DNA of 64,000 nt from a virus (IMGVR_UViG_3300032220_001761:1134-65133), one strand, 5' to 3'; positions 25,725 to 39,183 are shown, counted from the first letter of the stretch. A program made the numbers and translations. The notes: generated by a model not told the origin, from the sequence alone.

Positions 25725-26244
25725 ACAACAAATCCTTGGAGAAGTATTTACACCTGTTTTTATGACAGAGGATGAATTCGAAAAAGGATACAAAGAATCT
25801 ATATTTTGGACAGATAAGGATTTCATGTCAGAGTATAGAAAGCACATAGCTGCAATGTCTCATGTATCTGAATGTGCGAAGATATACATTCTTAAAAATT
25901 GGGCGAAGGTCAAGGATTGGAGCGAATTAGATGTGGTTATAGTACATGGTCCTTCTGGAAAAATGACGGAATACTATAATTATGTTCCTAGAGAAATTAA
26001 CAACGACCATAAAATAAAGGAAGGGGCTTATTCAAATCTGTTAAAAGAAATTGATGAGAAAAACAAGCTAAAGCATAATCCCATAAGGGAATTTAACGAG
26101 GTTATCCTTGACCCCACAGACGGTGATTTTTCAGTTACAGTAAATGGCAACGAAGAGCACTGGTGGATACAAGACGAAGCTGTTATAATAATAGCAGATT
26201 ATATTGAAGAACAATTAAAAAAACAAGATAATGAGGAAGCTTAA
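25663..26244 (+). CDS. hypothetical protein (start probably the Met at 25702)
   Basis: 193-aa ORF with lysine-rich N-terminus. Confidence 0.45.
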   Translation: MSISKKQKKKLKSMKKKEEYKQQILGEVFTPVFMTEDEFEKGYKESIFWTDKDFMSEYRKHIAAMSHVSECAKIYILKNWAKVKDWSELDVVIVHGPSGKMTEYYNYVPREINNDHKIKEGAYSNLLKEIDEKNKLKHNPIREFNEVILDPTDGDFSVTVNGNEEHWWIQDEAVIIIADYIEEQLKKQDNEEA

Positions 26245-27127
26245 CTTAGCAAATCCAGAAAAAAGTGGGATAGAATTTCAAATTTCTAAATTCCCAGATG
26301 GTCAGCAATCAGTGACTATAAATTCTCCGTTCTTAGCATCAACAGAACCTATAACAATAATCTCTAGAATGAACTCGTTCCGAGATCTTGAGCTTATCAT
26401 CTGTGCTAATGTCGCATTAAAAGAAATAGGAACTAAAGAAATCCATCTCTTTGTACCTTATTTTTTAGGAGCAAGATCAGATCGTAAATTCGTAGACGGA
26501 GGATCTAACTACCTAAAAGATGTCATCTGTCCTATCATCAACATGCAGAATTTCGAAACGGTTACGGTTTTAGATCCTCACTCTGATGTTTTAGAAGCTT
26601 GTCTTAAAAATTTCAGAAAAGAAACCAATATTGAATTTGTAAGAAAAGCTCTTACAAAGATCGATAATACAAATGATGCTAGAGAAAAAATGGTTATCAT
26701 TTCACCTGATGCAGGAGCAATGAAAAAGATCTATCAGGTTGCAGAAGCATTCTCGTTAGACAAAATTGTTATCGCTGCTAAACACAGGGATTTGAAATCT
26801 GGAAAGATTACTCACACGGAAGTACCAGATCTCAATAAATATTCACCAGATTCAAACTTTGTCATTATAGATGACATCTGCGATGGAGGTAGAACATTTA
26901 CTGAAATATCTAAAGTAATCAAATCTCATGTCTGGCCGAGGGACGAATATTTCAGAGGTAAGATCTATTTGATTATTACCCATGGTATTTTCTCTGCTGG
27001 TCTTTTAGATTTGAGTAGAAACTTCGACAATGTATTTACAACAAACAGTGTAAGGGATCTTGAGGTCGAGGATTTTTCAGATTACACTGTATCAAAAGAT
27101 TTTGTAATCCAATTTGAAGTTGTCTAA
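26231..27127 (+). CDS. ribose-phosphate pyrophosphokinase (PRPP synthetase) family protein. Candidate ADP-ribose pyrophosphokinase (Adps) of an NAD+ reconstitution pathway
   Basis: Prs-like blocks: FPDGQ (FsDGE), LELIICANVALKEIGTKEIHLFVPYFLGARSDRK (PYfgYaRQDRK), ISPDAGAMKK, and PRPP-binding loop VIIDDICDGGRT. Confidence 0.7.
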   Translation: MRKLNLANPEKSGIEFQISKFPDGQQSVTINSPFLASTEPITIISRMNSFRDLELIICANVALKEIGTKEIHLFVPYFLGARSDRKFVDGGSNYLKDVICPIINMQNFETVTVLDPHSDVLEACLKNFRKETNIEFVRKALTKIDNTNDAREKMVIISPDAGAMKKIYQVAEAFSLDKIVIAAKHRDLKSGKITHTEVPDLNKYSPDSNFVIIDDICDGGRTFTEISKVIKSHVWPRDEYFRGKIYLIITHGIFSAGLLDLSRNFDNVFTTNSVRDLEVEDFSDYTVSKDFVIQFEVV

Positions 27128-27129
27128 TT

Positions 27130-27498
27130 ATGAAAACAGAATTTAAAATCTCATCTATAGTCGGTATAAAAACCATTAATGAGAGAGAAAATACGTCATT
27201 TCAATGGTTTGATGAAATTCCAAGTAAATCTACATTTTTTGGAATGTTCAAATCTGAAAAAGTATCAGAAGGATTTGGAGAGATTGGGTACAATACGAGG
27301 TATACGGATCTGGACCTAATAAAAAGAGGTTATAACGTAAGTGGAAAGAAGGTATTTTACAGACCATATGCTACAGTCTATTTGGAACACGAGTACGAGG
27401 TACAAAAAACATTTAGATCCAATGAAGAAATGTCAGCATGGGTAAACTACCTAAAGACTGAAAATGGTGGAAATTTTGAAATTGTTAATCACAAATGA
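27130..27498 (+). CDS. hypothetical protein
   Basis: 122-aa ORF between the Prs-like and macro genes. 4-bp overlap downstream. Confidence 0.45.
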   Translation: MKTEFKISSIVGIKTINERENTSFQWFDEIPSKSTFFGMFKSEKVSEGFGEIGYNTRYTDLDLIKRGYNVSGKKVFYRPYATVYLEHEYEVQKTFRSNEEMSAWVNYLKTENGGNFEIVNHK

Positions 27499-28019
27499 GA
27501 TACGAAGAAATACAGGGGGATCTAATCAAATTAGCCAAAGAAGCTAAATTTGATGTTATAGCTCACGGATGCAATTGTCATTCACAAATGGGAGCTGGTT
27601 TAGCACCTCAAATGGCTAAAGCTTTTGGATGTGATAAATTCGAAATGGAATCTTGGGGATCCACTATTGAAAAACTTGGATGTATAGATTTTGAAACATT
27701 GGTATTAGGAAAAAATTCAATTTGGAGTTTAGCTGATGCAGACAACAAAGAAGGTGATCCTGAACTAGCAGTAGTTAATGCCTACACCCAATATAACTAT
27801 GGAAGAAATCACTCGGATGGGGATTTAAAACCTATAGATTATGAAGCACTTACCCTTTGCATGAGAAAAATGAATAAAATTTTTACAGGCAAACATATAG
27901 GTCTTCCACAAATAGGTGCAGGATTAGCAGGAGGAAATTGGAACAGAATTAAAAACATTATTCAAACAGAACTAGTTGACTGCAAAGTCACTGTAGTCAT
28001 TTACAACAAATTAGTATGA
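27495..28019 (+). CDS. macro domain protein (TARG1/OARD1-like ADP-ribose processing)
   Basis: VIAHGCNCHSQMGAGLA and GLPQIGAGLAGG match the OARD1-type macro ADP-ribose pocket (hGCNC..mGaGiA ... G.GlaGG). Confidence 0.65.
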   Translation: MRYEEIQGDLIKLAKEAKFDVIAHGCNCHSQMGAGLAPQMAKAFGCDKFEMESWGSTIEKLGCIDFETLVLGKNSIWSLADADNKEGDPELAVVNAYTQYNYGRNHSDGDLKPIDYEALTLCMRKMNKIFTGKHIGLPQIGAGLAGGNWNRIKNIIQTELVDCKVTVVIYNKLV

Positions 28020-28471
28020 CACTAAAAGACAAAATTCAAAAAGAATTCGTTGAAGCTATGAAAGCTAAAAACGATGTTGCTAAATCTGCCCTTAGCGGAT
28101 TAAAGGCAAAAATTACAGAGGCTGAAAAGGCTAACGGAAACGTATCCCTTGGAGATCCAGAGGTTGTTAAAGTCGTAAGCTCCGCAATCAAACAAAGAAA
28201 GCAATCTGTTGATGCTTTTGAGCAAGCTGGAAGAACTGATCTAGCCAATAAAGAAAAAGGCGAGATTATAGTATTGGAAACATTCCTTCCTAAGCAAATG
28301 ACAGAGGACGAGATTGAAAAGGCCGTAAGAGAAATCATTGCAAATATGCCAGAAGTTGCTACCAATGCTAATGCTCTTCAAGGAAAAACAATGGGTGCTT
28401 TCAACAAAGCTTATTCAGGTCAAGCAGATTCTAAAGTTGTAATGGAGATCATTAAAAAAGTAACAACATGA
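28016..28471 (+). CDS. GatB/YqeY domain protein
   Basis: DKIQKEFVEAMKAKNDVAKSALSGLKAKI...QRKQSVDAFEQAGRTDLANKEKGEIIVLETFLP...ANALQGKTMGAFNKAYSGQADSKVV follows the YqeY/GatB C-terminal domain pattern. Confidence 0.65.
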   Translation: MTLKDKIQKEFVEAMKAKNDVAKSALSGLKAKITEAEKANGNVSLGDPEVVKVVSSAIKQRKQSVDAFEQAGRTDLANKEKGEIIVLETFLPKQMTEDEIEKAVREIIANMPEVATNANALQGKTMGAFNKAYSGQADSKVVMEIIKKVTT

Positions 28472-28736: not shown

Positions 28737-28925
28737 ATGGATAAAAAATTAGAATCTGAGTACATCTATTGGGTAAAGAGGCTAAGGCTCGAAGACCTTC
28801 ATACAGAAATGCAAAATATAGAGTGGGGGATTCAAAATATAAAATCCGAAAAAACTTTAGAAAATGTCCTTGTCAAAAAAGGAATACTCGAAAAAGAATA
28901 CGAAACAAGAAATAACAAGAAATAA
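28737..28925 (+). CDS. hypothetical small protein
   Basis: 62-aa ORF. Confidence 0.3.
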   Translation: MDKKLESEYIYWVKRLRLEDLHTEMQNIEWGIQNIKSEKTLENVLVKKGILEKEYETRNNKK

Positions 28926-28926
28926 A

Positions 28927-29418
28927 ATGGAAAAAAATAGCAAATACTATTTCTTCTATAAAACAAGGCATCCATTTTCCAATTGGCATCCATGTTCATT
29001 TGAAGACAAAGAAGGAAATCAATACACTTGCTCAGAGCAATACATGATGGCTCAGAAAGCTTTACTCTTTGGAGATAAAGAAATATTTGAAGAAATCATG
29101 GACGAACCGGATCCAAAATTTCAAAAAGAATTGGGAAGGAAGGTTAAAGGGTTCGATTCTAAGATATGGAACGATAATGCGAAAAGAATAGTTTATGAAG
29201 GATGTAAGCTTAAATTTGAACAAAATGAAAAGTTACTAAAAGTATTACTTGATACAAAAGGAACTTTTCTAGTAGAGGCTTCTCCATATGATAGAATCTG
29301 GGGTATAGGTCTTGGAGAAGACGATCCAGCAATACACGATCCTGCTAATTGGAATGGATTGAATTGGCTAGGTGAAGTTCTTACCGACTTAAGAGATGAC
29401 ATAATTAATAATCAATAA
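28927..29418 (+). CDS. NADAR-domain (YbiA-like) N-glycosidase / ADP-ribosyl glycohydrolase
   Basis: FSNWHPCSF...YTCSEQYMMAQKALLFGD...LGRKVKGFD...KFEQNEKLLKVLLDTKGTFLVEASPYDRIWGIGL matches the NADAR/YbiA family. Start set to Met at 28927, immediately after the preceding stop. Confidence 0.65.
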   Translation: MEKNSKYYFFYKTRHPFSNWHPCSFEDKEGNQYTCSEQYMMAQKALLFGDKEIFEEIMDEPDPKFQKELGRKVKGFDSKIWNDNAKRIVYEGCKLKFEQNEKLLKVLLDTKGTFLVEASPYDRIWGIGLGEDDPAIHDPANWNGLNWLGEVLTDLRDDIINNQ

Positions 29419-29430
29419 AAACAAAACAAA

Positions 29431-30993
29431 ATGTTCAAACCAAACAGTTTATTCTACAGCGACGGCTATAAGATTGGCCACAAAAAAATGCTTGCTAAAG
29501 GAACTTCTCGTCTTTATGGTACATGGATTCCTAGAAGCATTAAGCATGCTCCTAAAGGTGTTAAGAAAATCCTTTCATTCGGACAACAACTTGCAATGAA
29601 ATGGCTTCATGATGAATTTTCAGAAAACTTTTTTAAACTATCCAAAGAAGATGCAATGCAATTCGGAAATGATATGTCATTGTATCTTGGTATGGATTAT
29701 GATGCTTCGCACTTTGAAGCTCTTCATGATCTAGGATATCTTCCAATTCGTGTAAAATCTTTACCAGAGGGGATCGAGACTTTACCAAATATCCCTCATA
29801 TGACATTCATTAACACTCTTGATGGATTTGCTTGGCTTACTCTTTATCTTGAAACTATCATTTCTTCACTTTCTTGGAAGCCTTCAACTTCGGCAACCAT
29901 TGCATTACAATACAAAAGAAACGTGGTTGAATGGGTAATGAAAACGGATCCAGCAAATTCTTTCCTCATTCCTTTTCTTTGCCATGATTTTTCTGCTAGG
30001 GGATTAAGTCCTTGGGATATGTTATCAAGCGGTCTAGGACACGCTACATCATTTCTAGGATCTGATACAATCATTTGTATCCCAGGAGCACGTTACTTCT
30101 ATAACGAGCCTAATGACCAAGTTGCAATCTACTCTGTAAATGCTTCTGAACACTCCGTATCGACAACTAAGATTTTTACAGTTGGTGAACAACAAATGAT
30201 AGCGGATTGGTTGGTAGATTTTCCTAAAGGTATCTTATCAATTGTATCTGATACTTTTGACCTTTGGAAGTTAATCACCGAGTACTTACCAGCAAATAAA
30301 GAAGCTATCATGGCTCGTGACGGTAAGTTAGTTATTCGTCCCGATTCTGGTGATCCTGTTGATATTATTTGTGGAATCAATACAAGGAATGATCCTGATA
30401 ATCGTTACGTTAAATTAGCTGGTACTCCTGAATACAAAGGAGTAATTGAATTACTTTGGGACATCTTCGGTGGCACAACCAATGAACAGGGTTACAAAGT
30501 ACTAGATCCTCATATCGGAGCAATCTATGGGGATTCAATTAATTTGGATCGTCAAATTCAAATCTATGAAAGATTGGAAGCTAAAGGTTTTGCTGCAACT
30601 AACATTGTTTTAGGAGTAGGATCTTTTACGTACCAAATGAACACTAGAGATACTTTTGGTTTTGCAGCTAAAGGAGCTTGGTTCGAGGTTAAAGAAGAGA
30701 TTGGTCAAACAGTTGATACATTACAGCCAATTTACAAATACACTGGATTTGATATTTTTAAGGATCCTGTAACAGATGATGGTACTAAAAAATCTCTAAA
30801 AGGTATGGTTGCTGTATTTGAAAATGACGGAGACCATTATGTTAAGATTCAATGTACACAGGAAGAAGAGGAAACAGGATTACTACAAGTTATCTATGAA
30901 AATGGTAATTTTTATAACCAATCTTCATTAACTGAGATTAGAGCAAAAATCAATGAGCTTTGTAACGAAAAAGTTCTTGAAACAGAAATTTAA
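29431..30993 (+). CDS. nicotinamide phosphoribosyltransferase (NAMPT/NadV) family protein. Candidate nicotinamide-ADPR transferase (Namat)
   Basis: N-terminal SDGYKIGHKKM...GTSRLYGTWIPRS (TDSYK..H...YP.T...ys.R) and overall 520-aa NAMPT-like length. Confidence 0.8.
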   Translation: MFKPNSLFYSDGYKIGHKKMLAKGTSRLYGTWIPRSIKHAPKGVKKILSFGQQLAMKWLHDEFSENFFKLSKEDAMQFGNDMSLYLGMDYDASHFEALHDLGYLPIRVKSLPEGIETLPNIPHMTFINTLDGFAWLTLYLETIISSLSWKPSTSATIALQYKRNVVEWVMKTDPANSFLIPFLCHDFSARGLSPWDMLSSGLGHATSFLGSDTIICIPGARYFYNEPNDQVAIYSVNASEHSVSTTKIFTVGEQQMIADWLVDFPKGILSIVSDTFDLWKLITEYLPANKEAIMARDGKLVIRPDSGDPVDIICGINTRNDPDNRYVKLAGTPEYKGVIELLWDIFGGTTNEQGYKVLDPHIGAIYGDSINLDRQIQIYERLEAKGFAATNIVLGVGSFTYQMNTRDTFGFAAKGAWFEVKEEIGQTVDTLQPIYKYTGFDIFKDPVTDDGTKKSLKGMVAVFENDGDHYVKIQCTQEEEETGLLQVIYENGNFYNQSSLTEIRAKINELCNEKVLETEI

Positions 30994-31005
30994 TAAGTAT
31001 TGAAT

Positions 31006-31043
31006 CCTCTGCTGTAAATCCCCAACGGCAGAGGGTTTATTTT
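31006..31043 (+). terminator. rho-independent terminator after the NAMPT-like gene
   Basis: CCTCTGC...GCAGAGG stem followed by GTTTATTTT. Confidence 0.6.
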
Positions 31044-31075: not shown

Positions 31076-32935
31076 ATGTTAGAAACAGTAATTCAGTATT
31101 GGTGGACAATTATTCCACTGTTAGCAATTGTATTCTACAAGTTTACATTGCGTGTATTTTTCGGGATGGTAATTATCCCGGAAGATAAAATCGGTTTGGT
31201 AACCAAAAAATTCGTTCTCTTCGGAGCAAACAAACAATTACCAGACGGAAAAATTATTGCTCTCAACGGAGAAGCAGGTTATCAAGCAAATGCTTTAGCT
31301 CCTGGTTTATACTGGGGTTACTGGGTTTGGCAGTTCTCTGTAGATCAAGCGGATCTTACAGTCATTCCTAAAGGGAAAATTGGTTTGTTGTCAGCAAAGG
31401 ACGGAACGCAACTTCCTACTGGTGCTATCCTTGCACGTCACGTAGAATGTGACAACTTCCAGGATACAGTTGCTTTCCTAAACAACAAGGGACAAAGAGG
31501 TAAACAGGTCGGTTATCTAAACAACGGGGTTTACCGTATTAATACATTCCTATTTGATATAGCAATTGCGGATATCACTTATATAGAAGACGGAATGGTT
31601 GGTGTTGTAACTACATTGGATGGAACACCATTAGATCAAGGAAACATTGCTGGTAAAGTTATTCCAGGACACAACAATTTCCAGGATTTTGATAAATTCT
31701 TAAGCAGTGGCGGACAACGTGGTCTACAAGAACAAGTAATTCAAGCTGGTAACTATTCTCTTAATCCTTGGGCAGTTGAGGTTGAAAAAGTTCCAATGAC
31801 AGAAATCGCTATTGGACACGTAGGTGTGGTAATTTCATATGTTGGGGACAAAGGCGAAGATTTAACTGGATCTGGCTTCAAGCATGGTAATATTGTTAGA
31901 GAAGGACAAAAAGGTGTATGTATTACTCCTTTCGATCCTGGTAAATATGCGGTTAACCCTTACACACATAAAATTGAAAGAGTCCCAACAACAAACCTTG
32001 TATTGAACTGGGCAAACGCAAGAACAGAATCGCATAACTTAGATAAGAGTTTAAGTACGATCACTGTTCGTTCAAAAGACGGCTTCCCGTTTAATCTTGA
32101 TGTATCCCAAATTATTCACATTCCTTCTACGGAAGCTCCGAAGGTGATTGCACGATTTGGATCTATGCAAAACTTGGTATCTCAAGTATTAGAGCCAACT
32201 ATCGGTAACTACTTCCGTAACTCTGCTCAAGGCTCAGATGTTATTGCTTTCTTAGCTACCCGACAAGATCGTCAAAATGCAGCTAAAGAAGCTATCAGTA
32301 AGGTTTTAGAGGAATACAACGTTCATGCGGTTGATACACTTATAGGTGATATAGTTCCACCTGATTCTCTAATGAAGACCTTAACCGACCGTAAGATTGC
32401 ACAGGAAGAAGAGGTAACTTTCGAAACACAGCGTAAAGCACAAGACCAACGTAAGACACTAGAGTCTGCTAAGGCTCTTGCTGATATGCAAGGTAAAATG
32501 GTAGCTGCACAACAATCAGTTGAAATCTCACAACGTGAAGCAGAAGCAGCAGTTAAGAAATCAGAAGGGGAAGCGAAAGCATTAGAACTTAAAGCTGGTG
32601 CTCAGGCAAAAGCTAAAAAGCTAATGGCTGAAGCTGATGCTGCTCAGATTAAATTAACAGGTGAAGCTGAAGCATCAAAAATTGCAGCAATTGGTAAATC
32701 TACAGCGGAAGCTTACGAGAAACAGGTTAAAGCAATGGGTGCAGATAACTTCGGTAAATTAAAAGTTACTGAGATGATAGGTACAAACGGAATCAAGATC
32801 ATTCCTGAGATTCTAATCTCTGGCAACGGAGATTCATCTCCGATTAATGGACTTTTAGGGATGGAACTTCTTAAGCAAATTCAAGAAAAGAAAGAAAAAT
32901 CTGGAAACATTAATGAGGGTAAGGTGATAGAATAA
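31076..32935 (+). CDS. flotillin/SPFH-family membrane protein (YqiK-like)
   Basis: N-terminal TM helix. Internally duplicated NFQD...GQRG.Q repeats. Ala/Glu/Lys-rich C-terminal coiled-coil region (AKALELKAGAQAKAKKLMAEADAAQIKLTGEAEASKIAAIGKSTAEAYEKQ) typical of bacterial flotillins. Confidence 0.65.
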   Translation: MLETVIQYWWTIIPLLAIVFYKFTLRVFFGMVIIPEDKIGLVTKKFVLFGANKQLPDGKIIALNGEAGYQANALAPGLYWGYWVWQFSVDQADLTVIPKGKIGLLSAKDGTQLPTGAILARHVECDNFQDTVAFLNNKGQRGKQVGYLNNGVYRINTFLFDIAIADITYIEDGMVGVVTTLDGTPLDQGNIAGKVIPGHNNFQDFDKFLSSGGQRGLQEQVIQAGNYSLNPWAVEVEKVPMTEIAIGHVGVVISYVGDKGEDLTGSGFKHGNIVREGQKGVCITPFDPGKYAVNPYTHKIERVPTTNLVLNWANARTESHNLDKSLSTITVRSKDGFPFNLDVSQIIHIPSTEAPKVIARFGSMQNLVSQVLEPTIGNYFRNSAQGSDVIAFLATRQDRQNAAKEAISKVLEEYNVHAVDTLIGDIVPPDSLMKTLTDRKIAQEEEVTFETQRKAQDQRKTLESAKALADMQGKMVAAQQSVEISQREAEAAVKKSEGEAKALELKAGAQAKAKKLMAEADAAQIKLTGEAEASKIAAIGKSTAEAYEKQVKAMGADNFGKLKVTEMIGTNGIKIIPEILISGNGDSSPINGLLGMELLKQIQEKKEKSGNINEGKVIE

Positions 32936-32938
32936 AGG

Positions 32939-33415
32939 ATGAAATTACAAGTCCTTAAACCAACTGACGGTGACTCTGTAAAAAACAGAGTCACCGTTTT
33001 TCTTGCAGGATCTATTGAGATGGGTGCTGCAGAAGATTGGCAAACAAAATTAGCCAACGATTTACAAGACATCCCGGTAACACTTTTTAACCCAAGAAGA
33101 GATTCTTGGGATTCTTCATGGGAGCAAAGAATGTCTAATCCAGAGTTCAGATACCAGGTAAACTGGGAGATGAACATGCTAGAATCTTCCGATATAATAT
33201 TTCTTTATCTTTCTCCGGAAACTAAATCCCCTATTTCACTACATGAATTAGGACTTCATGCTGACAGTGGAAAAATGATAGTTTGTTGTCCCGATGGATT
33301 TTGGAGAAAGGGAAACGTTGAAATAACTTGTGCTAGACACGGTATTCCTTTATACAACGATATAAACCATGCAAAGGATGCTTTAATCACGCTAATAAGC
33401 TCTAAAACAATATAA
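32939..33415 (+). CDS. nucleoside 2-deoxyribosyltransferase-like / DNPH1-like N-glycoside hydrolase fold protein
   Basis: VFLAGSIE (iYlAGP-type start), ...SLHELGLHADSGKMIV (catalytic-Glu ELG motif of the NDT/DNPH1 family). 3 bp after the flotillin stop. Confidence 0.5.
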   Translation: MKLQVLKPTDGDSVKNRVTVFLAGSIEMGAAEDWQTKLANDLQDIPVTLFNPRRDSWDSSWEQRMSNPEFRYQVNWEMNMLESSDIIFLYLSPETKSPISLHELGLHADSGKMIVCCPDGFWRKGNVEITCARHGIPLYNDINHAKDALITLISSKTI

Positions 33416-33416
33416 A

Positions 33417-34343
33417 ATGAATGATTTAAAATTTTTGAATACTGCCTTCGTAATAAAAAAGGACAGTAAAACAGGTGGGAACGGAACTATTACCTATATG
33501 GATTTAGAAATGTCACCATCTTCCGACAGGGTTGAAACCTGGGGACTTACAGAAGCAGGGGAAGCCCCACACGAACTTAGAATGGTTACTAGATCTAAAT
33601 TTTTTGAGCTTCAAAGATTTCAGGTAAAGTCGACATACCCTTCAGAACTTATATCTGATCTTAATTATTACCACGGAGTAGATGGTAATTCTATGATTGA
33701 TGAGGCATTGAATAATGAGATGGATCAATCTCTCATTAAAAATCTATACAAAAAATACAGTGAGATTGGAGAAATAACAAGGGTATCCCAATATACAAAA
33801 TGGCAAAAGTTCATTCTTAAAATCTCCCCTAAAATGATTTTTACCAATTATATTAAAGAGGATAGAAATGGATCTGAAATGCTCTATAATAAGATTGTGG
33901 TAGAAGCTAATAAGATAGCATCTAGAACAAGAATAAAACCAGGAGATTTTATTGTATGTGGTTCACTAGTAGGGTCTTTATTACAGGATCACCCAGGATT
34001 TTCATTCGAGTCATTAAATAACTCGATCTCTATGAAAACACCTAGCATAGACTATGTTGGAAACATTGCAGGAAGAATAGCTGTTTATGTTAATGCAAAT
34101 GAAAAGTTTAGTGATGGATGGGTAATTATAGGCAGAAAAACAAACACACATGAAACTGGTGTCTATTTTATTTATGAGGACAGAGAAAAAATTCAACTAG
34201 CGGATATAGATCCATCAAAAAATAAATTTGGTATAACACAAAGAGCTGCAATAGTTGATACCCACGGGGCAGAAAAATCATTTTCAAAAATACACTTCAC
34301 AGTGGGTAAAAAACCATTCTGGAAAAAACTTTTTAATATTTAA
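33417..34343 (+). CDS. hypothetical protein
   Basis: 308-aa ORF, 1 bp after the upstream stop. Confidence 0.5.
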   Translation: MNDLKFLNTAFVIKKDSKTGGNGTITYMDLEMSPSSDRVETWGLTEAGEAPHELRMVTRSKFFELQRFQVKSTYPSELISDLNYYHGVDGNSMIDEALNNEMDQSLIKNLYKKYSEIGEITRVSQYTKWQKFILKISPKMIFTNYIKEDRNGSEMLYNKIVVEANKIASRTRIKPGDFIVCGSLVGSLLQDHPGFSFESLNNSISMKTPSIDYVGNIAGRIAVYVNANEKFSDGWVIIGRKTNTHETGVYFIYEDREKIQLADIDPSKNKFGITQRAAIVDTHGAEKSFSKIHFTVGKKPFWKKLFNI

Positions 34344-34351
34344 AAAAATCC

Positions 34352-35845
34352 ATGGCTATCTTAGGAGATATTAAATATATCGACATGGATATTAATGATC
34401 CATTAGAATTTAAAGAATTCCCAGGGAGAATAGTTTTAGTTACTTCTTTTTTAGATATAGGGAGAGGAAACTGGAAGGATTATTCAAGAAATGCAGATAC
34501 CTATATAAGATCTTTTTTGAATTATCTAGATTATGAGTATGAGATGATAATATTCATAGACGAGAGATACCATAGTGAAATAGTCGGGTATTACAATGAA
34601 TCTAAGTATAAAAATAAAACGATAATCCCAATTAATAAGGATTGGTGCAATGAAAATTTAGATTCGTGGAAAAAGTTAAATTCCTATAATAACATAATGT
34701 CATCAGATTACTATAAAGGAATTGTAGGGCATAGGATAACATCAGGGTCTCCAGAAAATATATCACCAGAGTATAACATTATAAATCATTCAAAGATAGA
34801 TTTTTTAAAGTATTGTATAGATAACAGATTATCAGAATCTGATTTTTTCTGCTGGACTGATTTTGGATACTTCAATGCAATACTCCAAAATAATAATGAT
34901 TACTATCCTAAATCTATTTTAAGCAACAAGAAATTTAATTACGACAAGATAAGTTTTTTTCTTAGAAACAAAATAGAGGAGGTAGATGCAGATACTATCT
35001 ACACTCTAATAAATTCACCAGAGAAATTTACTGGATCATTTTGGGGTGGAAATACAAAAAATATAAATGCTCTTCATAGTTTATATCATGAATCTTTAGA
35101 TGAAATGATGGAGCAAAATATAGCTGACGACGATCAGCATGTATACCTAAAATGTTTTTTAAAAAATCCAGGAATTTTCCAACTGTACTTATCTAATAAA
35201 GAATGGCCAAAAGCTCTTAAATACATGGAGGACAAAAAATATTATACAGGGAAGAAATTTTTTGATTGCGGAACTCACTTTTTTGAAGGATTTGAGAAAT
35301 TCGCTAAAATGTATAATATTGATGATAAATGGAAATGCTATTGTTTCGAAGCTAATCCTATCACTTATTCGATGTCAATAAAAAAGATGAAAGAATTAAT
35401 AGGTGTGGGGCACAATATAGATTATTTCAATTTAGCAGTTACTAATAAAAACACAGAAATCAAAATAAACTGTGCATTAGATTCAGGATCTTTTACAAAT
35501 CAAGGATCAAATATATTAGATTCCCCGCCAGATAGAGACATAGTATATGGGGGTGTTTTTAATTATAACAGCGATTCTTTTTATGTTAGAGGATTAATAT
35601 TCTCAGACTTTCTAAAACAAACTGTAAATGAAGGAGATTTTGTTGTAATTAAAATGGACATAGAGGGATCTGAATTTGATGTTATGGATTCACTAATTGA
35701 AACTGGAACATTCAAACTTATAAGCCAGATTTATGTAGAATATCACGAAAGATTTTTTGAAGATGTTGAAGCTTATAGTGAGAAGAAAAAATCATACGAA
35801 AGAATATTCAAAGAACACAATATAGCAATAAAAGAATGGGAATAG
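34352..35845 (+). CDS. two-domain protein: N-terminal putative glycan-modifying domain plus C-terminal FkbM-family methyltransferase domain
   Basis: C-terminal FkbM blocks FDCGTHFFEGF...YCFEANPITY...NLAV...GDFVVIKMDIEGSEFDVM...IYVEYHE. Confidence 0.5.
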   Translation: MAILGDIKYIDMDINDPLEFKEFPGRIVLVTSFLDIGRGNWKDYSRNADTYIRSFLNYLDYEYEMIIFIDERYHSEIVGYYNESKYKNKTIIPINKDWCNENLDSWKKLNSYNNIMSSDYYKGIVGHRITSGSPENISPEYNIINHSKIDFLKYCIDNRLSESDFFCWTDFGYFNAILQNNNDYYPKSILSNKKFNYDKISFFLRNKIEEVDADTIYTLINSPEKFTGSFWGGNTKNINALHSLYHESLDEMMEQNIADDDQHVYLKCFLKNPGIFQLYLSNKEWPKALKYMEDKKYYTGKKFFDCGTHFFEGFEKFAKMYNIDDKWKCYCFEANPITYSMSIKKMKELIGVGHNIDYFNLAVTNKNTEIKINCALDSGSFTNQGSNILDSPPDRDIVYGGVFNYNSDSFYVRGLIFSDFLKQTVNEGDFVVIKMDIEGSEFDVMDSLIETGTFKLISQIYVEYHERFFEDVEAYSEKKKSYERIFKEHNIAIKEWE

Positions 35846-36420
35846 GAGAGCTTCACAGTCTAGGGATAAGATATGGAACTGACAAGGCAACATATCACGA
35901 TTATCTTAATTTTTACGAAAATAATATAGGTCATTTAAAAAACGAAAGGATTAATATTATGGAAATAGGATTTCTGCACGGGAATTCTATAAAAATGTGG
36001 CTAGATTACTTTACAAATGCTAGAATATATTGCTTAGATATTATAGATTGCTCTTTTACTCACGAAAGATTTCACTATATTAAGATATCACAGGATAATC
36101 CTATTTTAGATAATATTTTTCCAGATTCTTTTTTCGACTTAATTATAGATGATGGTAGTCATATGACATCACATCAGATAAAATCTTTAGAGATATTATG
36201 GAAAAAAGTAAAATCTCCAGGATTTTACATATTAGAGGATTTACATACATCATTTTCTAAGGAGTATGTTGATACTGAAATAACAGCATATGAAATAATA
36301 AATGGGGAGAAATCTATACAATCTATTTCTCCTATCATGGAAGAAACATCTTCTATTGAAATATTTAGAAAAAATCACGGGGTTGGTTCTAATAGTTTAA
36401 CCTCAATCTTAAAAAAATAA
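35836..36420 (+). CDS. SAM-dependent methyltransferase (CmcI/TylF-like)
   Basis: YGTDKATYHDYLNFY N-terminal motif and MEIGFLHGNSIKMW...ARIYCLDI SAM-binding region. Confidence 0.45.
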   Translation: MGIGELHSLGIRYGTDKATYHDYLNFYENNIGHLKNERINIMEIGFLHGNSIKMWLDYFTNARIYCLDIIDCSFTHERFHYIKISQDNPILDNIFPDSFFDLIIDDGSHMTSHQIKSLEILWKKVKSPGFYILEDLHTSFSKEYVDTEITAYEIINGEKSIQSISPIMEETSSIEIFRKNHGVGSNSLTSILKK

Positions 36421-36426
36421 AAAATT

Positions 36427-37008
36427 ATGGCGGTTTCCAGAAAAACATTTAGAATTTGCGAAAATTATTTCGTCTCTGGTAAAAAAATAGCTGAATTGGG
36501 ATCACAATTTGTTGTCGGTGAAGAATGGGGATCTTATGGTCCTCCATATTTTAAAGATGTTTTCAAACATCTTGACATAACATCATTTGATTACAATGGA
36601 GAGAATGGAGCAATAAAAGTAGATCTTTCCATTCCTATAGGCGAAGAATACAAAAATCAGTATGACATAGTCACTAATTTTGGAACAACAGAACATGTTT
36701 CAAATCAGCACACATGTTGGAAAAATATTTTTGATATGCTAAAACCTGATGGCTTAGTCATTAGCGAGATACCAAGAAAAAATAATTGGCCAAACCATTG
36801 TAAATACTATTATGACGAAGTTAGTTTTAATTCACTGTCGGATGATTTTATAATAATGGAAATCTCCAATATATTCTATGATGGACAAGGAGATTTAATC
36901 TATACGGTTTTAAGAAAAAAACATGATGGTGAATTTAAAACTACCACATACAATCTAATGAATTCTGTACAGGTTGATCAATATTTTGTAGACCCACAAG
37001 GACATTAA
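36427..37008 (+). CDS. hypothetical protein (possibly another methyltransferase-fold protein)
   Basis: 193-aa ORF, KKIAELGSQ.. weakly SAM-motif-like. Confidence 0.4.
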   Translation: MAVSRKTFRICENYFVSGKKIAELGSQFVVGEEWGSYGPPYFKDVFKHLDITSFDYNGENGAIKVDLSIPIGEEYKNQYDIVTNFGTTEHVSNQHTCWKNIFDMLKPDGLVISEIPRKNNWPNHCKYYYDEVSFNSLSDDFIIMEISNIFYDGQGDLIYTVLRKKHDGEFKTTTYNLMNSVQVDQYFVDPQGH

Positions 37009-37026
37009 AAATAAAAAAATAAAAAA

Positions 37027-38631
37027 ATGGATAAGTTAATAGATTGCTTCACATTCTATAATGAGCTAGATATGCTAGAGCTCAGATTTAGAGAGATATA
37101 TGATACTGTCGATAAATTCATAATAGTTGAAGCCGATAAAACATTCGGAGGAGAAAAAAAGCCTTTTTTACTGGATGAGAACATAGAAAGATTCTCTAAA
37201 TGGAGTGATAAAATAATTCATATCAAGATAAATTTTCCTAATATAGGATCAAATCCTTGGGACTATGAAAGGTATCAAAGGAATTCTTTCATGCAAGCTC
37301 TGTATTTTTTAGGATTGACAGATTCTGACAAGGTTATGATAACAGATGTTGATGAAATCCCAGATCCCAATACTATCTCATACATTAAGACTTATCCATT
37401 GAATGGAATTTATAAATTAGAGATGGATCATTATTTTGGTTCTTTTAGAAATAAAATGTCCAATCCGGAAAAATGGTATCATCCTAAGATAATGAATTGG
37501 GGGCATCTTAAAAATTCAACCCCAGATAACTGTAGATCCGACTTCAATTGCCAATGGTGGGAAAGAGGAGGATGGCATCTTTCTTATTTCGGAGGTCCAG
37601 AAAAGATATCAAAAAAGATTGGAAGTTTTTCTCATCAAGAATACAATAATGAAGTAATAAGGGATGTAAACAGGATATCAGATAAAATAAAATCTAACAG
37701 GGATTTTTTAGATGATTGGAGATCCTTCGTTAATATAAACCCGGAATCTAATCCTTATCTACCAAAAAATTGGAGAATACTTGAAAAATACGAAGAGGAG
37801 TATTTTCCTGAACTTTATGCTAAAAAAGATTTAGTCCTAGGATCTGCTATAAACATAGATCTAAATTCCATAATGACATTTATTAGGTCGTTGAGAAAAT
37901 ACAATAAAGAATGTAGCATATCAATCATAGTTGAAAATAATATAGACGAAGTTAAAAAATCTTCTATCAAAAAGGAGGGGGTAAATCTTATTTTTACATC
38001 AATCAGTACATTTTTAGAATCACCAATAAATAACATCAGATACCTAAAGTTTTTTGAATTTATCAAAGATCATGAAAATGAATATAAAAACGTATTGATC
38101 TCTGATGTTAGAGACGTTTATTTTCAAAATGATCCATTTAAAGGATTGGAAAAAAACTCAATATTCTTTGCTGAGGAGGATGAATCTAAGACAATAAAGG
38201 ATGATGATAGATTTAACTCGAGATGGATTAGACAAACATATGGGGATATTATTTTAGAGGATCTAAATAATGAAAAAATAACATGCTGTGGAACAGTAAT
38301 AGGATCATATAGAAACATATCAGCATATCTAGAATTTATGACTAATGAAATAATTAGATTCTATAAAGAGAAAAATCCTTTCTTTAATGATATGCTAGAC
38401 ACAGCAATTCATACCTATATTTATTACAAAAGGAGGGATTTGCTAGAAAATCCTTCTATGAAAAATAATGGGGATTTATTTGGGACAGTGGGAATAACGG
38501 TAAAAGAATTCCCAGATAAAATAACAATAAAGAATAATTTAATAGAGGTGAACGGAAAAATTCCTTCTATAATCCATCAATACGATAGGTCAGAATGGTT
38601 AAAAAAATTTATTAATCTAAATTCAAAATAA
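37027..38631 (+). CDS. glycosyltransferase family 17-like (bisecting-GlcNAc-transferase-like N-domain) with a C-terminal extension
   Basis: LIDCFTFYNELDMLELRFREIYDTVDKFIIVEADKTFGGEKKP matches the GT17 N-terminal signature (CF.F.NE.D.LE.R...L...VD.F.IVE...TF.G..K). Confidence 0.55.
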   Translation: MDKLIDCFTFYNELDMLELRFREIYDTVDKFIIVEADKTFGGEKKPFLLDENIERFSKWSDKIIHIKINFPNIGSNPWDYERYQRNSFMQALYFLGLTDSDKVMITDVDEIPDPNTISYIKTYPLNGIYKLEMDHYFGSFRNKMSNPEKWYHPKIMNWGHLKNSTPDNCRSDFNCQWWERGGWHLSYFGGPEKISKKIGSFSHQEYNNEVIRDVNRISDKIKSNRDFLDDWRSFVNINPESNPYLPKNWRILEKYEEEYFPELYAKKDLVLGSAINIDLNSIMTFIRSLRKYNKECSISIIVENNIDEVKKSSIKKEGVNLIFTSISTFLESPINNIRYLKFFEFIKDHENEYKNVLISDVRDVYFQNDPFKGLEKNSIFFAEEDESKTIKDDDRFNSRWIRQTYGDIILEDLNNEKITCCGTVIGSYRNISAYLEFMTNEIIRFYKEKNPFFNDMLDTAIHTYIYYKRRDLLENPSMKNNGDLFGTVGITVKEFPDKITIKNNLIEVNGKIPSIIHQYDRSEWLKKFINLNSK

Positions 38632-38637
38632 CAAAAA

Positions 38638-39183
38638 ATGAGAAATAAAATTTTCGACAAAATATGGGATCTACAGACTAAAGTCCCTACTATAAATAAG
38701 TTCTTCTCTTTTAGTCTTGAAGACTTACATGAAAATCCAGAAAAATGTCTGGAGGAGATAGAGCATTATCTAGAAAAACACGGAGATAAAATAGAGGATT
38801 TTTCATTCGAATCATGGATTGACGAAGATACCTTTAAGCCTGTTCTTATGTTAAAGATGGTACCTGTTGAAGAATTGGCGAAACATCTATTCCCTTCGAA
38901 TGTTCTAAACCTTCTTCTTCCCTCATCTAAAGAATCAGAGATCCTAAGAAATAGAATCACTTCAGTTCTTTCGAAATATGCTTTTGATTTTAACGATGAT
39001 GATACTAGAAAAGCTATGGCTAGTGATCTAGAATTCGTTCTTTCTGGGGTAGAAGTACTGGATAAAACCACATTTGAAAATATTGACAAAGGGATACTTA
39101 ATTTCATCGTAAGACACGATGATCATGAAATGACATTACAAGAGTATTTGGAGCTTGTAGCGGACAAAAAAAGATATGAATAA
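38638..39183 (+). CDS. hypothetical protein
   Basis: 181-aa ORF. Confidence 0.45.
   Translation: MRNKIFDKIWDLQTKVPTINKFFSFSLEDLHENPEKCLEEIEHYLEKHGDKIEDFSFESWIDEDTFKPVLMLKMVPVEELAKHLFPSNVLNLLLPSSKESEILRNRITSVLSKYAFDFNDDDTRKAMASDLEFVLSGVEVLDKTTFENIDKGILNFIVRHDDHEMTLQEYLELVADKKRYE

Follow-up and report, generated by a model that had tools for sequence, protein, structure and literature searches.

A phage flotillin gene and its NDT-like neighbour as a possible distal part of a NARP1-type NAD+ island

Introduction

Why would a phage carry a gene for a flotillin-like membrane protein three nucleotides upstream of a gene for a small NDT-like protein? The pair lies in a 64,000-nt stretch of viral DNA (IMGVR_UViG_3300032220_001761:1134-65133; the window, by which the whole stretch analysed is meant), the source of which is probably a large environmental phage with a Bacteroidota host. 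An earlier, sequence-only reading had treated the two genes as a dedicated unit of flotillin and glycosidase and had guessed at three roles: membrane-localised nucleotide depletion, degradation of a signal nucleotide, or dNMP salvage for modified DNA. The NAD+ context of the locus was absent from that reading.

Bacterial immunity relies centrally on NAD+ depletion and on signals made from NAD+, and NARP pathways are the phage answer. NARP1 consists of Adps and Namat, and its variant NARP1-AP adds the Macro phosphatase Adpp (bioRxiv 10.1101/2024.02.11.579819, 10.64898/2026.01.28.702374; Osterman et al.). Adpp and the RyR-fold glycosidase RyDEP, which widen NARP1 recycling, were reported only in 2026. 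The analysis described here points to a previously unreported NARP1 helper, which is what the NDT-like protein looks like, and to a flotillin that is best read as a separately transcribed passenger, on which the association of the NDT-like gene with NARP1 would not depend.

A same-strand array with NARP1-type genes

The two genes form the end of a same-strand array and are not a stand-alone unit (Table 1). Their open reading frames are confirmed where the sequence-only reading had placed them, joined by a TAA-AGG-ATG junction. Junctions across the + strand array from 25.3 to 39.6 kb nearly all fall between −14 and +18 nt, and a single nucleotide separates the NDT-like gene from the gp23-like gene that follows. 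The 3-nt spacing of the pair is typical of the whole array and nothing special.

Table 1. Features of the island, with positions counted from the first letter of the window
Feature	Position	Strand	Length or remark
Prs-like phosphoribosyl-pyrophosphokinase homologue, candidate Adps	26231-27127	+	298 aa
122-aa protein, recurs in island	27130-27498	+	no Pfam match
Poa1p-like Macro protein, candidate Adpp (ADPR-1''-phosphate phosphatase)	27495-28019	+	174 aa
YqeY-like protein	28016-28471	+	Pfam PF09424, E 2e-35
NADAR-domain protein	28864-29418	+	Pfam PF08719, E 5.9e-52
NAMPT-family protein, Namat type (nicotinamide ADP-ribose transferase, predicted)	29431-30993	+	Pfam PF04095, PHROG 448
Namat selectivity-clamp motif	30619-30651		aa 397-407 of the NAMPT-family protein
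Terminator-like hairpin T1	31001-31039	+	in 82-nt gap after NAMPT, then U-rich tail
Flotillin ORF (YqiK-type SPFH)	31076-32935	+	619 aa
PF15891 NDT-like ORF	32939-33415	+	158 aa
Hairpin T2	32966-33006	+	14-bp perfect stem, 5-nt loop, codons 10-20 of the NDT-like ORF
gp23-like gene, truncated paralogue of T4 Gp23 major capsid protein	33417-34343	+	308 aa

The Prs-like and NAMPT-like genes share a strand and are separated by 2.3 kb, the proximity that marks NARP1. The Prs-like protein scores 32.1 bits against Pfam PF00156 and 18.9 bits, under the cutoff, against PF14572; its context makes it a candidate Adps (ADP-ribose pyrophosphate synthetase). Residues 18-264 presumably align with E. coli Prs, leaving 34 residues after this core compared with about 50 in E. 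coli Prs, at the end where Adps is distinguished by its lack of the alpha11-alpha12 module of PRPS. Phage loci and bacterial loci alike show this gene again together with NAMPT and the NDT-like gene. Its NAMPT-family partner carries the Namat selectivity-clamp motif as GSFTYQMNTRD. The published form is GSX-Phi-X-Phi-X-Phi-TRD with aromatic X (PMC12774641); positions 3 and 5 are aromatic here, while position 7 is a non-aromatic Met, a site at which relatives have F, Y or M. This motif is present in essentially all NAMPTs that adjoin NDT-like genes, in phages and bacteria, and is absent from two NARP2-type control NAMPTs, those of phages L02 and CcrColossus.

A Poa1p-like Macro gene within the array gives the locus the gene content of NARP1-AP. 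The Macro protein matches PHROG 335 'phosphatase' (E 1.9e-43) and 2475 relatives in phages carry annotations as phosphatase, Poa1p-like or macro; its Pfam Macro score is 16.3 bits against a cutoff of 22, and its match to DarG is weak too. The remaining genes recur as well. Homologues of the 122-aa protein sit between the Macro and NDT-like genes in four loci (L010, L011, L015 and L037), the YqeY-like gene recurs 5' of NAMPT in about ten related loci, and the NADAR gene, whose family comprises ADP-ribose N-glycosidases, again accompanies the NDT-like gene in phages and bacteria. The gp23-like protein (Pfam PF07068, E 5e-18, profile positions 149-349 of 376) has its gene behind that of the NDT-like protein, flotillin or NAMPT in 15-17 flotillin loci, and several NDT-like loci show such a placement too. 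Genes for YggL, methyltransferases and glycosyltransferases also belong to the island, and RNA-repair genes (HAD_SAK_2, Thg1 and RNA ligase) occur in the same regions. Next to the NDT-like gene in the window, no enzymes of DNA hypermodification were recognised.

The NDT-like protein

The 158-aa protein belongs to Pfam PF15891 (Nuc_deoxyri_tr2), which it matches at 126.6 bits (cutoff 30) over profile positions 2-105 of 105, and it shares the fold of 4MCJ, the solved structure of that family. Against PF05014, the canonical NDT family, it scores 23.7 bits (E 5.5e-5), under the cutoff of 28.8. The motifs VFLAGSIE (residues 20-27) and HELGL (residues 102-106) are present, and of the NDT/DNPH1/LOG-SLOG signature that the sequence-only reading drew from them, membership of an NDT-like family stands. 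The LOG/SLOG part of the signature finds no counterpart: no PGGxGTxxE was seen on reading the sequence, and no LOG/SLOG family matched at E <= 0.01. PF15891 has thousands of members. A profile search of PDB sequences with the NDT-like family found only 4MCJ, PADLOC and NCBIfam gave no match for the flotillin or the NDT-like protein, and the literature searched held nothing functional or biochemical on PF15891, 4MCJ or YtoQ and no paper tying PF15891 to NARP1. Among structural matches is a Klosneuvirus protein annotated as Nudix, and a virion-associated polyvalent protein of Tunturi_5 fuses an NDT-like domain to ART-PolyVal.

Conservation within the family centres on a set of invariant residues: F21, N51-P52-R53-R54, Q73, W76-E77, P98, E103-x-G105, R123 and N126, with residue 27 acidic (E or D) family-wide. 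E103 is invariant in 52 close and 18 diverse sequences (at least 95% of a 55-sequence set) and lies within helix 98-106, which follows strand 86-90 of the structure model. Phage and bacterial members, at 41-96% identity, all share E77, E103 and the motif around them. We take the E103 site to be the position of the DNPH1 nucleophile, on a manual alignment with a DNPH1 sequence, in keeping with the placement that the sequence-only reading had expected of the ELG glutamate. By the same alignment, the phosphate-loop Arg of DNPH1 (GSIRGG) is presumably replaced by the acidic residue of GSIEMG and, with the help of a short hhalign segment, the active-site Tyr at the end of strand 1 by the invariant F21. 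An hhalign comparison of the PF15891-family profile with this DNPH1 sequence aligned the strand-1 loop alone and was not significant. Because the phosphate-loop Arg has given way to a conserved acidic residue and Tyr to Phe, DNPH1-like dNMP chemistry is not implied, and PF15891 has its own invariant NPRR and QVNWE motifs. No transmembrane helix or membrane-binding segment is predicted in the protein.

The flotillin and its flanking hairpins

The 619-aa protein is an SPFH protein of the YqiK type, the name that JGI gives its relatives. It combines a Band_7/SPFH domain (90.2 bits, cutoff 23.6; residues 247-453) with an N-terminal anchor, its single hydrophobic segment (residues 11-35, a transmembrane helix), and an Ala/Lys/Glu-rich C-terminal region (residues 455-560; 26 Ala, 15 Lys and 12 Glu out of 105). 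The duplicated GQRG region that the sequence-only reading described is real: segments of about 74 aa, at roughly residues 103-175 and 176-249, align with a score of 94 against 29 ± 4.9 for shuffled sequences. The protein is 82-99% identical to its best 120 database clusters and is among the most conserved proteins of the source phage's clade. No solved structure similar in sequence was matched, and nothing functional on phage SPFH proteins was present in the literature searched.

Two hairpins bracket the flotillin gene. T1 lies in the largest intergenic gap of the array and folds with a dG of −21.6 kcal/mol (z −3.4), a stability reached by none of 200 shuffles; similar hairpins lie 5' of flotillin in several relatives. 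T2 (dG −23.8 kcal/mol, z −5.4) lies just inside the NDT-like open reading frame and is followed by TTTTCTT, which supplies the Val-Phe-Leu codons of the conserved VFLAG. Its stem carries a compensatory T-A to C-G change in one relative (L058). Hairpins of the T2 type occur in 11 of 17 distinct flotillin-adjacent NDT-like genes compared with 2 of 45 others (Mann-Whitney P 0.001) and have at least six unrelated stem sequences; T2 is conserved in shape, not in sequence. The T2 arm sequence is not a dispersed repeat. TAnnTTTG-like motifs occur 5' of flotillin homologues. In the window, the motif GTTTATTTTAAA, which lies upstream of flotillin, shows no enrichment, with 5 matches where 3.4 would be expected, and a scan for sigma-70 promoters gave background levels. 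A terminator-like hairpin inside the coding sequence of the next gene offers a testable case of transcriptional punctuation within an open reading frame.

Gene neighbourhoods in phages and bacteria

Across 71 flotillin loci, the NDT-like gene lies directly 3' of flotillin in 19, often after a gap of 2-3 nt, and the NAMPT-flotillin-NDT block is kept while downstream flanks vary. The pair thus recurs, a co-occurrence on which the sequence-only reading had staked its proposal. Flotillin follows NAMPT in about 34 of the 71 loci and stays 3' of NAMPT where the NDT-like gene adjoins the Prs-like gene. Some flotillin loci have NAMPT with the NDT-like gene elsewhere, or neither gene, and LR756502.1, which holds the closest GenBank flotillin, has no NDT-like gene within 6 kb. 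A 165-aa open reading frame after flotillin in L148-type loci was considered as a divergent NDT-like protein and ruled out.

Most phage loci come from one related clade (flotillin 72-88% identity), and shared synteny inflates the viral counts: NAMPT is linked to the NDT-like gene, in either order, in 40 of 53 related loci, and 38 viral loci join the NDT-like gene to NARP1 genes without flotillin. These NAMPT-linked loci span at least 10 architectures with differing flanks, and the NDT-like gene switches its side of NAMPT, or adjoins the Prs-like gene, while flanks are replaced. About 13 of the 53 have no NAD genes within the flanks of the NDT-like gene. The 53-locus scan used exact peptide patterns, which undersampled flotillin-bearing loci; the notion of flotillin as a rare insertion (2 of 53) was overturned by the flotillin-side scan of 71. 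Flotillin homologues at a greater distance (63-72% identity) are without NAD neighbours, as are distant NDT-like homologues. Among cultured phages, some have a NARP2-type NAMPT 7-18 kb away from the NDT-like gene, and in others no NAD gene is annotated in its vicinity; the NDT-like gene lies between PhoH and exonuclease genes, near dCMP deaminase, in phage DLP_6, and near DNA ligase in phage BUDD.

Bacterial loci, mostly of Bacteroidota, repeat the association. Among the best 80, 12 have the NDT-like gene near at least one of the Prs-like, Namat-type NAMPT, NADAR and Macro genes, and NrtR, Tpt1/KptA, ADP-ribosylglycohydrolase (ARH) and microbial PARG also occur among these 12; none has a flotillin. 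The islands are shuffled between loci into at least five gene orders and sit on long chromosomal contigs with the NAD regulator NrtR. The other 68 have no NAD genes in the flanks of the NDT-like gene. In one bacterial MAG (L090), 1.7 kb separates an NDT-like gene from a flotillin of 34% identity.

Weighing the explanations

The explanation we prefer, and hold with about even confidence, is that an extended NARP1-type island for NAD+ reconstitution and ADP-ribose recycling has the flotillin and NDT-like genes as its distal part, and that the NDT-like protein serves this pathway. The steadier partners of the NDT-like gene are the NARP1 genes and NADAR, also where no flotillin is near, which speaks against a dedicated flotillin-glycosidase unit. 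A two-component system, in which the scaffold sites the glycosidase at the membrane for local nucleotide depletion or signal degradation, does draw on the 19 of 71 adjacent pairs with their short gaps, on the persistence of the NAMPT-flotillin-NDT block and on the bacterial pairing in L090. It is nonetheless improbable, given the 38 viral and 12 bacterial loci that link the NDT-like gene to NARP1 without flotillin, the flotillin loci (LR756502.1 among them) that lack an NDT-like neighbour, a 3-nt gap that is ordinary for the array, a terminator-like hairpin between the flotillin stop codon and the body of the next open reading frame, and an NDT-like protein with no predicted means of membrane attachment. 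Chance company within one clade's accessory region, with flotillin, NDT-like and gp23-like genes hitch-hiking together and the bacterial cases being transferred phage-derived blocks, would fit the relatedness of most phage loci, the unrelated genes in the island (YqeY, YggL, methyltransferases, glycosyltransferases) and the distant homologues that lack NAD neighbours. This too is an improbable account, as the NDT-like gene changes its place around NAMPT and the Prs-like gene while flanks are replaced, and the bacterial islands, in several gene orders, lie on long NrtR-bearing chromosomal contigs.

It is rather unlikely that the NDT-like protein is an ordinary nucleotide-pool enzyme of the DNPH1, MilB or NDT kind, used in salvage, in clearing modified or signalling dNMPs or in modifying DNA, with its NAD neighbours incidental. 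The weak PF05014 match and the DLP_6 and BUDD contexts speak for such a role, as does the phage X1 paper, which groups the NDT-like gene with replication enzymes. Against it stand a PF05014 score below the curated cutoff, the presumed loss of the DNPH1 loop Arg and Tyr, the family's own invariant motifs, the repeated clustering with ADPR-processing genes and, in bacteria, NrtR, the fusion to an ADP-ribosyltransferase in one phage, and the lack of identified DNA-hypermodification enzymes beside the gene in the window. Of the three roles guessed earlier, signal-nucleotide degradation fits the context best, and dNMP salvage for modified DNA finds no support nearby. A non-catalytic protein that sequesters an ADPR-derived or other nucleotide immune signal, as a Tad1/Tad2-like sponge or SLOG-type sensor, is very unlikely. 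A small single-domain protein in a counter-defence-like island would suit it, the 10 chains of the 4MCJ entry suggest that the protein may be oligomeric, and the related TIR/DrHyd/SLOG class has non-catalytic members that bind nucleotides (PMC9503650); the invariance of E77, E103 and their motif at 41-96% identity is the more enzyme-like pattern.

A proposed role in NAD+ reconstitution

The island would rebuild NAD+ after bacterial immune attack. If the NDT-like protein does serve this pathway, it would be an active enzyme with an N-(deoxy)ribosyltransferase fold, in which the carboxylate that accepts or stabilises the ribosyl group may be E103, with E77 assisting. The enzyme would cleave or exchange an N-glycosidic bond in a ribosyl compound derived from NAD+ or ADP-ribose, and its product would feed NARP1, most plausibly as ADP-ribose released from an N-linked ADPR conjugate or from cyclic ADPR; removal of a signal derived from NAD+ may be a further task. 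With a conserved acidic residue in place of the phosphate-loop Arg, its substrate would not be a dNMP of the DNPH1 type. NMN nucleosidase activity, chemically close to MilB and DNPH1, is ranked below ADPR release by inference only, because distant PF15891 homologues coexist with NARP2-type phages that make NMN, which would set up a futile cycle. The RNA-repair neighbours could instead indicate NAD-dependent RNA repair as the theme rather than counter-defence.

The flotillin would be a membrane scaffold expressed from its own transcription unit after Namat in the source phage's clade. This is suggested by the terminator upstream (T1), the terminator-like hairpin just inside the next open reading frame (T2) and the TAnnTTTG-like motifs. 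Membrane protection or organisation during infection is a guess at its role. A bolder and rather doubtful version makes PF15891 a third class of NARP1 accessory enzyme, an N-glycosidase or nicotinamide base-exchange enzyme that turns N-linked ADPR signals or NAD+ breakdown products into ADPR or NAD+, with flotillin as a separately regulated membrane protection against abortive-infection effectors. Candidate substrates would be N1- or N7-cyclic ADPR and His-ADPR, and, if this were true, one enzyme would silence Thoeris-type signalling and refuel NAD+ together. In phages, and in bacterial islands under NrtR regulation, PF15891 clusters with Adps, Namat, NADAR and other ADP-ribose hydrolases, which makes it open to direct testing as a candidate for one more branch of this arms race; PF15891 would gain a function if the proposal is borne out.

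Comparison with known systems

The flotillin resembles bacterial YqiK-type flotillins in its N-terminal transmembrane helix, SPFH domain and Ala/Glu-rich C-terminal region. Unlike them, it is phage-encoded, follows a Namat gene and has two extra copies of an N-terminal SPFH subdomain before the domain; the neighbouring genes that were scanned include no recognised NfeD partner. The NDT-like protein shares with DNPH1/RCL, MilB/BcmB and NDT (PF05014) a Rossmann-like fold, E103 in the helix after strand 4 and the acidic E77 in the preceding helix. It differs from DNPH1 and NDT in a GSIEMG loop in place of GSIRGG, Phe in place of Tyr, and extra invariant NPRR and Trp-rich motifs. The structural representative 4MCJ is BDI_0649 of Parabacteroides distasonis, an unannotated structural-genomics entry, whereas the protein of the window is encoded in a phage NAD island.

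NARP3 (PnuC and NadR) was considered and is unrelated to the island. The likeness to NARP1 and NARP1-AP is one of gene content and lies in same-strand Prs-like and Namat-motif NAMPT genes with a Poa1p-like Macro gene between them. The window differs from NARP1 in having four further genes between the core pair and in adding NADAR, PF15891 NDT-like, flotillin and gp23-like genes, which are unmentioned in the NARP1 papers searched. An accessory role for the NDT-like protein in NARP1 would parallel those of the published accessory enzymes Adpp, described as the NARP1-AP enzyme (bioRxiv 10.64898/2026.01.28.702374), and RyDEP, a RyR-domain glycosidase whose opening of 2'/3'cADPR yields ADPR for NARP1 (PMC13232231). 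The analogy with RyDEP is functional only: each is an accessory gene beside a NARP1 operon, and the NDT-like product is likewise proposed to turn an NAD+-derived compound into ADPR. The NDT fold is unrelated to that of RyDEP, which cuts an O-glycosidic ribose-ribose bond, whereas the NDT fold is known for N-glycosidic bonds.

The flotillin and NDT-like genes

The flotillin and NDT-like ORFs lie on the + strand at the positions assigned by the sequence-only reading, joined by a TAA-AGG-ATG junction with 3-nt spacing. The flotillin matches Pfam Band_7/SPFH over residues 247-453 at 90.2 bits (cutoff 23.6), and has a single hydrophobic segment at residues 11-35 and an Ala/Lys/Glu-rich stretch at residues 455-560. 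Its GQRG segments (approximately residues 103-175 and 176-249) align with a score of 94, against 29 +/- 4.9 for shuffled sequences, showing that the internal duplication proposed earlier is real. The flotillin gene has a G+C content of 39.5%, above the 33.8% of the window overall. The close spacing that had been taken to couple the two genes is present but not special to them: junctions across the + strand array that spans 25.3-39.6 kb generally fall between -14 and +18 nt, and the one large gap, of 82 nt, separates the NAMPT gene from flotillin.

Features of the island, in window coordinates
Feature	Position	Strand	Remarks
YggL 50S-ribosome-binding-protein homologue	25299-25724		island flank
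Prs-like protein	26231-27127	+	PF00156 32 bits, PF14572 18.9 bits
Macro-like protein	27495-28019	+	PHROG 335 'phosphatase', E 1.9e-43
YqeY	upstream of NADAR	+	between Macro-like and NADAR genes
NADAR	upstream of NAMPT	+	E 5.9e-52
NAMPT-family protein	directly upstream of flotillin gap	+	520 aa, profile matches
Hairpin T1	31001-31039	+	dG -21.6 kcal/mol, z -3.4, then U-rich tail
Flotillin	31076-32935	+	619 aa
NDT-like protein	32939-33415	+	158 aa
Hairpin T2	32966-32998 (with tail to 33006)	+	dG -23.8, z -5.4
gp23-like protein	33417-34343	+	308-aa truncated T4 Gp23 paralogue, Pfam profile positions 149-349 of 376
MGS-like domain protein	39176-39574		island flank

The NDT-like protein scores 126.6 bits against PF15891 'Nuc_deoxyri_tr2' (cutoff 30) and 23.7 bits against the canonical NDT family PF05014, below the cutoff of 28.8. 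Its sole sequence relative of solved structure is 4MCJ (E 3.6e-29), BDI_0649 of Parabacteroides distasonis, recorded as 'uncharacterized protein'. The motifs VFLAGSIE and HELGL occupy residues 20-27 and 102-106. Among phage and bacterial members of 41-96% identity, F21, G24, I26, W34, N51-P52-R53-R54, Q73, W76-E77, P98, E103, G105, R123 and N126 are invariant or nearly so, while residue 27 is Glu or Asp in every member compared. In the secondary structure of an AlphaFold2 model (52 homologues, mean pLDDT 89.8), E103 belongs to the helix that follows strand 4, and E77 to the helix before it. From this and a manual alignment with the DNPH1 sequence, we take them to match the Glu nucleophile and the acidic helper of DNPH1 and NDT; in the same alignment a Phe stands at the position of DNPH1 Tyr24 and the conserved acidic residue at that of the phosphate-loop Arg30. 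A comparison with DNPH1 by hhalign aligned the strand-1 loop alone, non-significantly. The N-(deoxy)ribosyltransferase fold and a catalytic-type Glu are thus present. That part of the proposed NDT/DNPH1/LOG-SLOG signature stands. The protein lacks the hallmarks that define canonical NDT and DNPH1, and no LOG/SLOG motif was found in the 158-aa sequence.

Hairpins and transcription around flotillin

Two terminator-like hairpins flank flotillin. T1 sits in the NAMPT/flotillin gap. T2 pairs 14 bp without a mismatch around a 5-nt loop and lies within codons 10-20 of the NDT-like ORF; just after it comes TTTTCTT, where the Val-Phe-Leu of the conserved VFLAG is encoded. In 25 kb, T2 and one other are the only perfect hairpins this large. 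In the close relative L058 (stem at 8028-8060), pairing is kept by a T-A to C-G double change that alters the encoded peptide. In all distinct NDT-like genes we compared a 51-nt stretch whose last codon immediately precedes the conserved Phe. A hairpin folding at -14 to -25 kcal/mol ended at exactly that point in 11 of 17 flotillin-adjacent genes, with at least six unrelated stem sequences, and in only 2 of 45 others (Mann-Whitney P 0.001). Such hairpins occur, besides the window, in viral loci L058, L169, L173, L177, L182, L186, L210 and L024; the V/I-F-L codons supply the U-tract, and shape and position are conserved while stems differ between lineages.

Flotillin homologues are often preceded by a hairpin resembling a terminator and by an element of TAnnTTTG type, the latter 20-40 nt before the start codon (for example in loci L148, L162, L171, L176 and L188-L190); the window has only TAATTTTT. 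TAnnTTTG is the Bacteroidota -7 promoter consensus, and these elements are consistent with a promoter and host of that type. These sequence features suggest that flotillin forms its own transcription unit, with a putative terminator or attenuator in the N-terminal linker, a variable part, of the NDT-like gene, which would be expressed by read-through past T2. The G-S-I-E-M-G codons of the NDT-like gene (33011-33025, GGNTCCATTGARATGGGN) are self-complementary and form a second, weaker hairpin, found in many NDT-like genes (L003, L006, L009, L051 and L209 among them) and probably a by-product of the codons.

Gene neighbourhoods in phages

A scan of IMG/VR from the NDT side yielded 53 loci (NDT-like protein 49-72% identity). 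Ten or more gene arrangements can be told apart among them, and their flanks differ. NAMPT lies 0-3 genes from the NDT-like gene, upstream or downstream, in 40 of them, and Prs-like and Macro genes are the next commonest neighbours. Flotillin is present in only two, which made it seem a rare insertion. This was wrong, as the scan from the flotillin side revealed. Its 71 loci (63 from IMG/VR and 8 from exact-protein look-ups; 56-88% identity) hold NAMPT in 40, NDT-like in 32, Prs-like in 27, Macro and NADAR in 18 each and gp23-like in 15. The flotillin-NDT-like pair thus recurs: the NDT-like gene is directly downstream of flotillin in 19 of the 71 (spacing between -44 and +104 nt), and six loci have the 2-3-nt gap of the window. 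NAMPT is directly upstream of flotillin, or one small ORF apart, in about 34.

The order that recurs among these loci is [Prs-like, Macro, NADAR,] NAMPT, flotillin, NDT-like, gp23-like; every element is dispensable. Close kin (NDT-like 91%, flotillin 87-88% identity) share the gene order of the window. In four loci (L144, L153, L156, L157) the NDT-like gene is beside Prs-like and flotillin still follows NAMPT, and in two (L152, L154) flotillin occurs with gp23-like alone. NAD genes were not found within 8 kb of distant flotillins (63-72% identity), nor island genes within 6 kb of the closest flotillin from a GenBank phage (LR756502.1, 642 kb; 66% identity). Among cultured phages with a distant NDT-like homologue, L02, CcrColossus and DLP_6 have a NARP2-type pair of NAMPT and NMNAT-Nudix genes 7-18 kb away; Slickus01 has no annotated NAD gene nearby, and RsoM2USA and BUDD none within 5 kb.

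The gp23-like gene starts 1 nt after the NDT-like gene, and in many related loci its neighbour is NDT-like, NAMPT or flotillin; in an island that resembles a counter-defence one, this capsid-like fragment could be a decoy against capsid-sensing defences. A 116-aa YAcAr (SLOG-family) protein, of a sister superfamily of the NDT fold, is encoded second after flotillin in L144 (8161-8511) and its relatives L145-L147, loci with NDT-like beside Prs-like. Downstream, 34352-38631 encodes an HtrL_YibB-FkbM methyltransferase fusion, two more methyltransferases and a GT17 glycosyltransferase, and L058 has GT17 and GT11; these genes could target glycan, virion or DNA. A search of the window for tRNA genes found none.

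Bacterial islands and domain fusions

The NDT-like family has at least 571 confirmed matches in bacterial genomes. Among the best 80, 12 loci have the NDT-like gene a few genes from one or more NARP1/ADPR genes (NADAR in 10, Prs-like in 9, Namat-type NAMPT in 8, Macro in 3), in at least five gene orders and with no flotillin found nearby. They belong to Chitinophaga rupis, three Flavobacterium, two Fluviicola, Aquimarina and other Bacteroidota (loci L120; L127, L130, L132; L071, L110; L093, L078, L099 and L119). NrtR (NAD regulator), Tpt1/KptA RNA 2'-phosphotransferase, ADP-ribosylglycohydrolase, YmdB-type Macro, microbial PARG, DUF4291, 2OG-Fe(II) oxygenase and metallophosphoesterase genes also recur there. 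By gene content these chromosomal islands look like an ADP-ribose-to-NAD+ recycling regulon, and they independently support an assignment of the NDT-like gene to ADP-ribose processing and NAD+ resynthesis. Neighbours of this kind are absent from the other 68 of the 80, and the link is therefore not a property of the family as a whole.

Tunturiibacter phage Tunturi_5 gp225 (L004 4962-8750; 1262 aa) joins an N-terminal PF15891 domain to an ART-PolyVal ADP-ribosyltransferase domain; it is annotated 'MutT/NUDIX hydrolase' and adjoins the portal gene, the typical neighbour of genes for virion-injected polyvalent proteins. A structural match, a Nudix-annotated Klosneuvirus protein, is counted as a second fusion. 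Both point to the same ADP-ribose/NAD+ link.

Proposed role of the pair

In NARP1, the Prs-like Adps converts ADPR and ATP to ADPR-PP, from which the NAMPT-like Namat makes NAD+ with nicotinamide (bioRxiv 10.1101/2024.02.11.579819). NARP1-AP adds Adpp, a Poa1p-like Macro phosphatase that converts ADPR-1''-phosphate to ADPR (bioRxiv 10.64898/2026.01.28.702374), and the glycosidase RyDEP opens 2'/3'cADPR to ADPR, from which Adps and Namat then make NAD+ (PMC13232231). We infer that the NDT-like protein is catalytically active on the N-glycosidic bond of an NAD+/ADPR-derived ribosyl compound, and that its service to the NARP1 loop would be like that of Adpp and RyDEP. Its substrates would be N-linked ADPR species, hydrolyzed to ADPR; N1-/N7-cyclic ADPR, His-ADPR or a base-ADPR adduct would be the most coherent candidates.

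A nicotinamide-releasing NMN nucleosidase would have chemistry near that of MilB/DNPH1, but in those NARP2-type phages where a distant NDT-like homologue is present as well its action would be futile. Alternatively, the same chemistry may recycle ADPR by-products of NAD-dependent RNA repair, a setting suggested by the RNA-repair genes of these islands: HAD_SAK_2, Thg1-like, RNA ligase and calcineurin-like phosphoesterase genes near the island in relatives, and Tpt1 in bacteria. RNA-repair-type genes, including a P-loop kinase-like ORF, recur in the flanks of L006-L042 and at window 40708-41948 (-); the L058 homologue of 41211-41948 (-) is annotated PolyA_pol.

For flotillin, a membrane-protective or organizing role during infection is a guess. 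The idea that flotillin and glycosidase form a membrane machine is not borne out, as each element is dispensable and the 12 bacterial islands have no flotillin nearby. The observation behind the sequence-only reading is confirmed and its interpretation supported in part; the pair is real and recurrent, and the preferred reading makes both genes accessory parts of an extended NARP1 island.

Comparison with known systems

The closest known protein to the NDT-like protein, 4MCJ, carries no assigned function. In the literature searched, with few subscription journals covered, no paper mentions PF15891 and none treats NARP1 together with a deoxyribosyltransferase. A 2022 survey of viral NAD+-ADPr systems recorded the DrHyd (NDT-like) superfamily in viruses only as ARC-type (PMC9503650), and in a jumbo-phage survey neither NDT-like nor SPFH proteins come up in this context.

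The signature that tells Namat from Nampt is GSX-Phi-X-Phi-X-Phi-TRD (PMC12774641). The window NAMPT carries it as GSFTYQMNTRD (aa 397-407); its seventh residue is Met, and the relatives vary there between Phe, Tyr and Met. The signature is also present in NAMPTs adjoining the NDT-like gene in related phage loci and in all six bacterial NAMPTs checked beside NDT-like genes, and is absent from the two NARP2-type NAMPTs checked, those of Erythrobacter phage L02 and CcrColossus, which adjoin an NMNAT-Nudix gene. The nearest cultured relatives of the window NAMPT are in Leptolyngbya phage Lbo-JY46 (68%) and Tenacibaculum phage PTm1 (61%). The window thus shares with NARP1 the Prs-like and NAMPT-like genes, the latter with the Namat signature. 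With NARP1-AP it shares the Poa1p-like Macro gene, a candidate Adpp whose 2475 phage relatives are annotated phosphatase, Poa1p-like or macro. Gene content and the Namat motif both point to NARP1/NARP1-AP as the closest known system.
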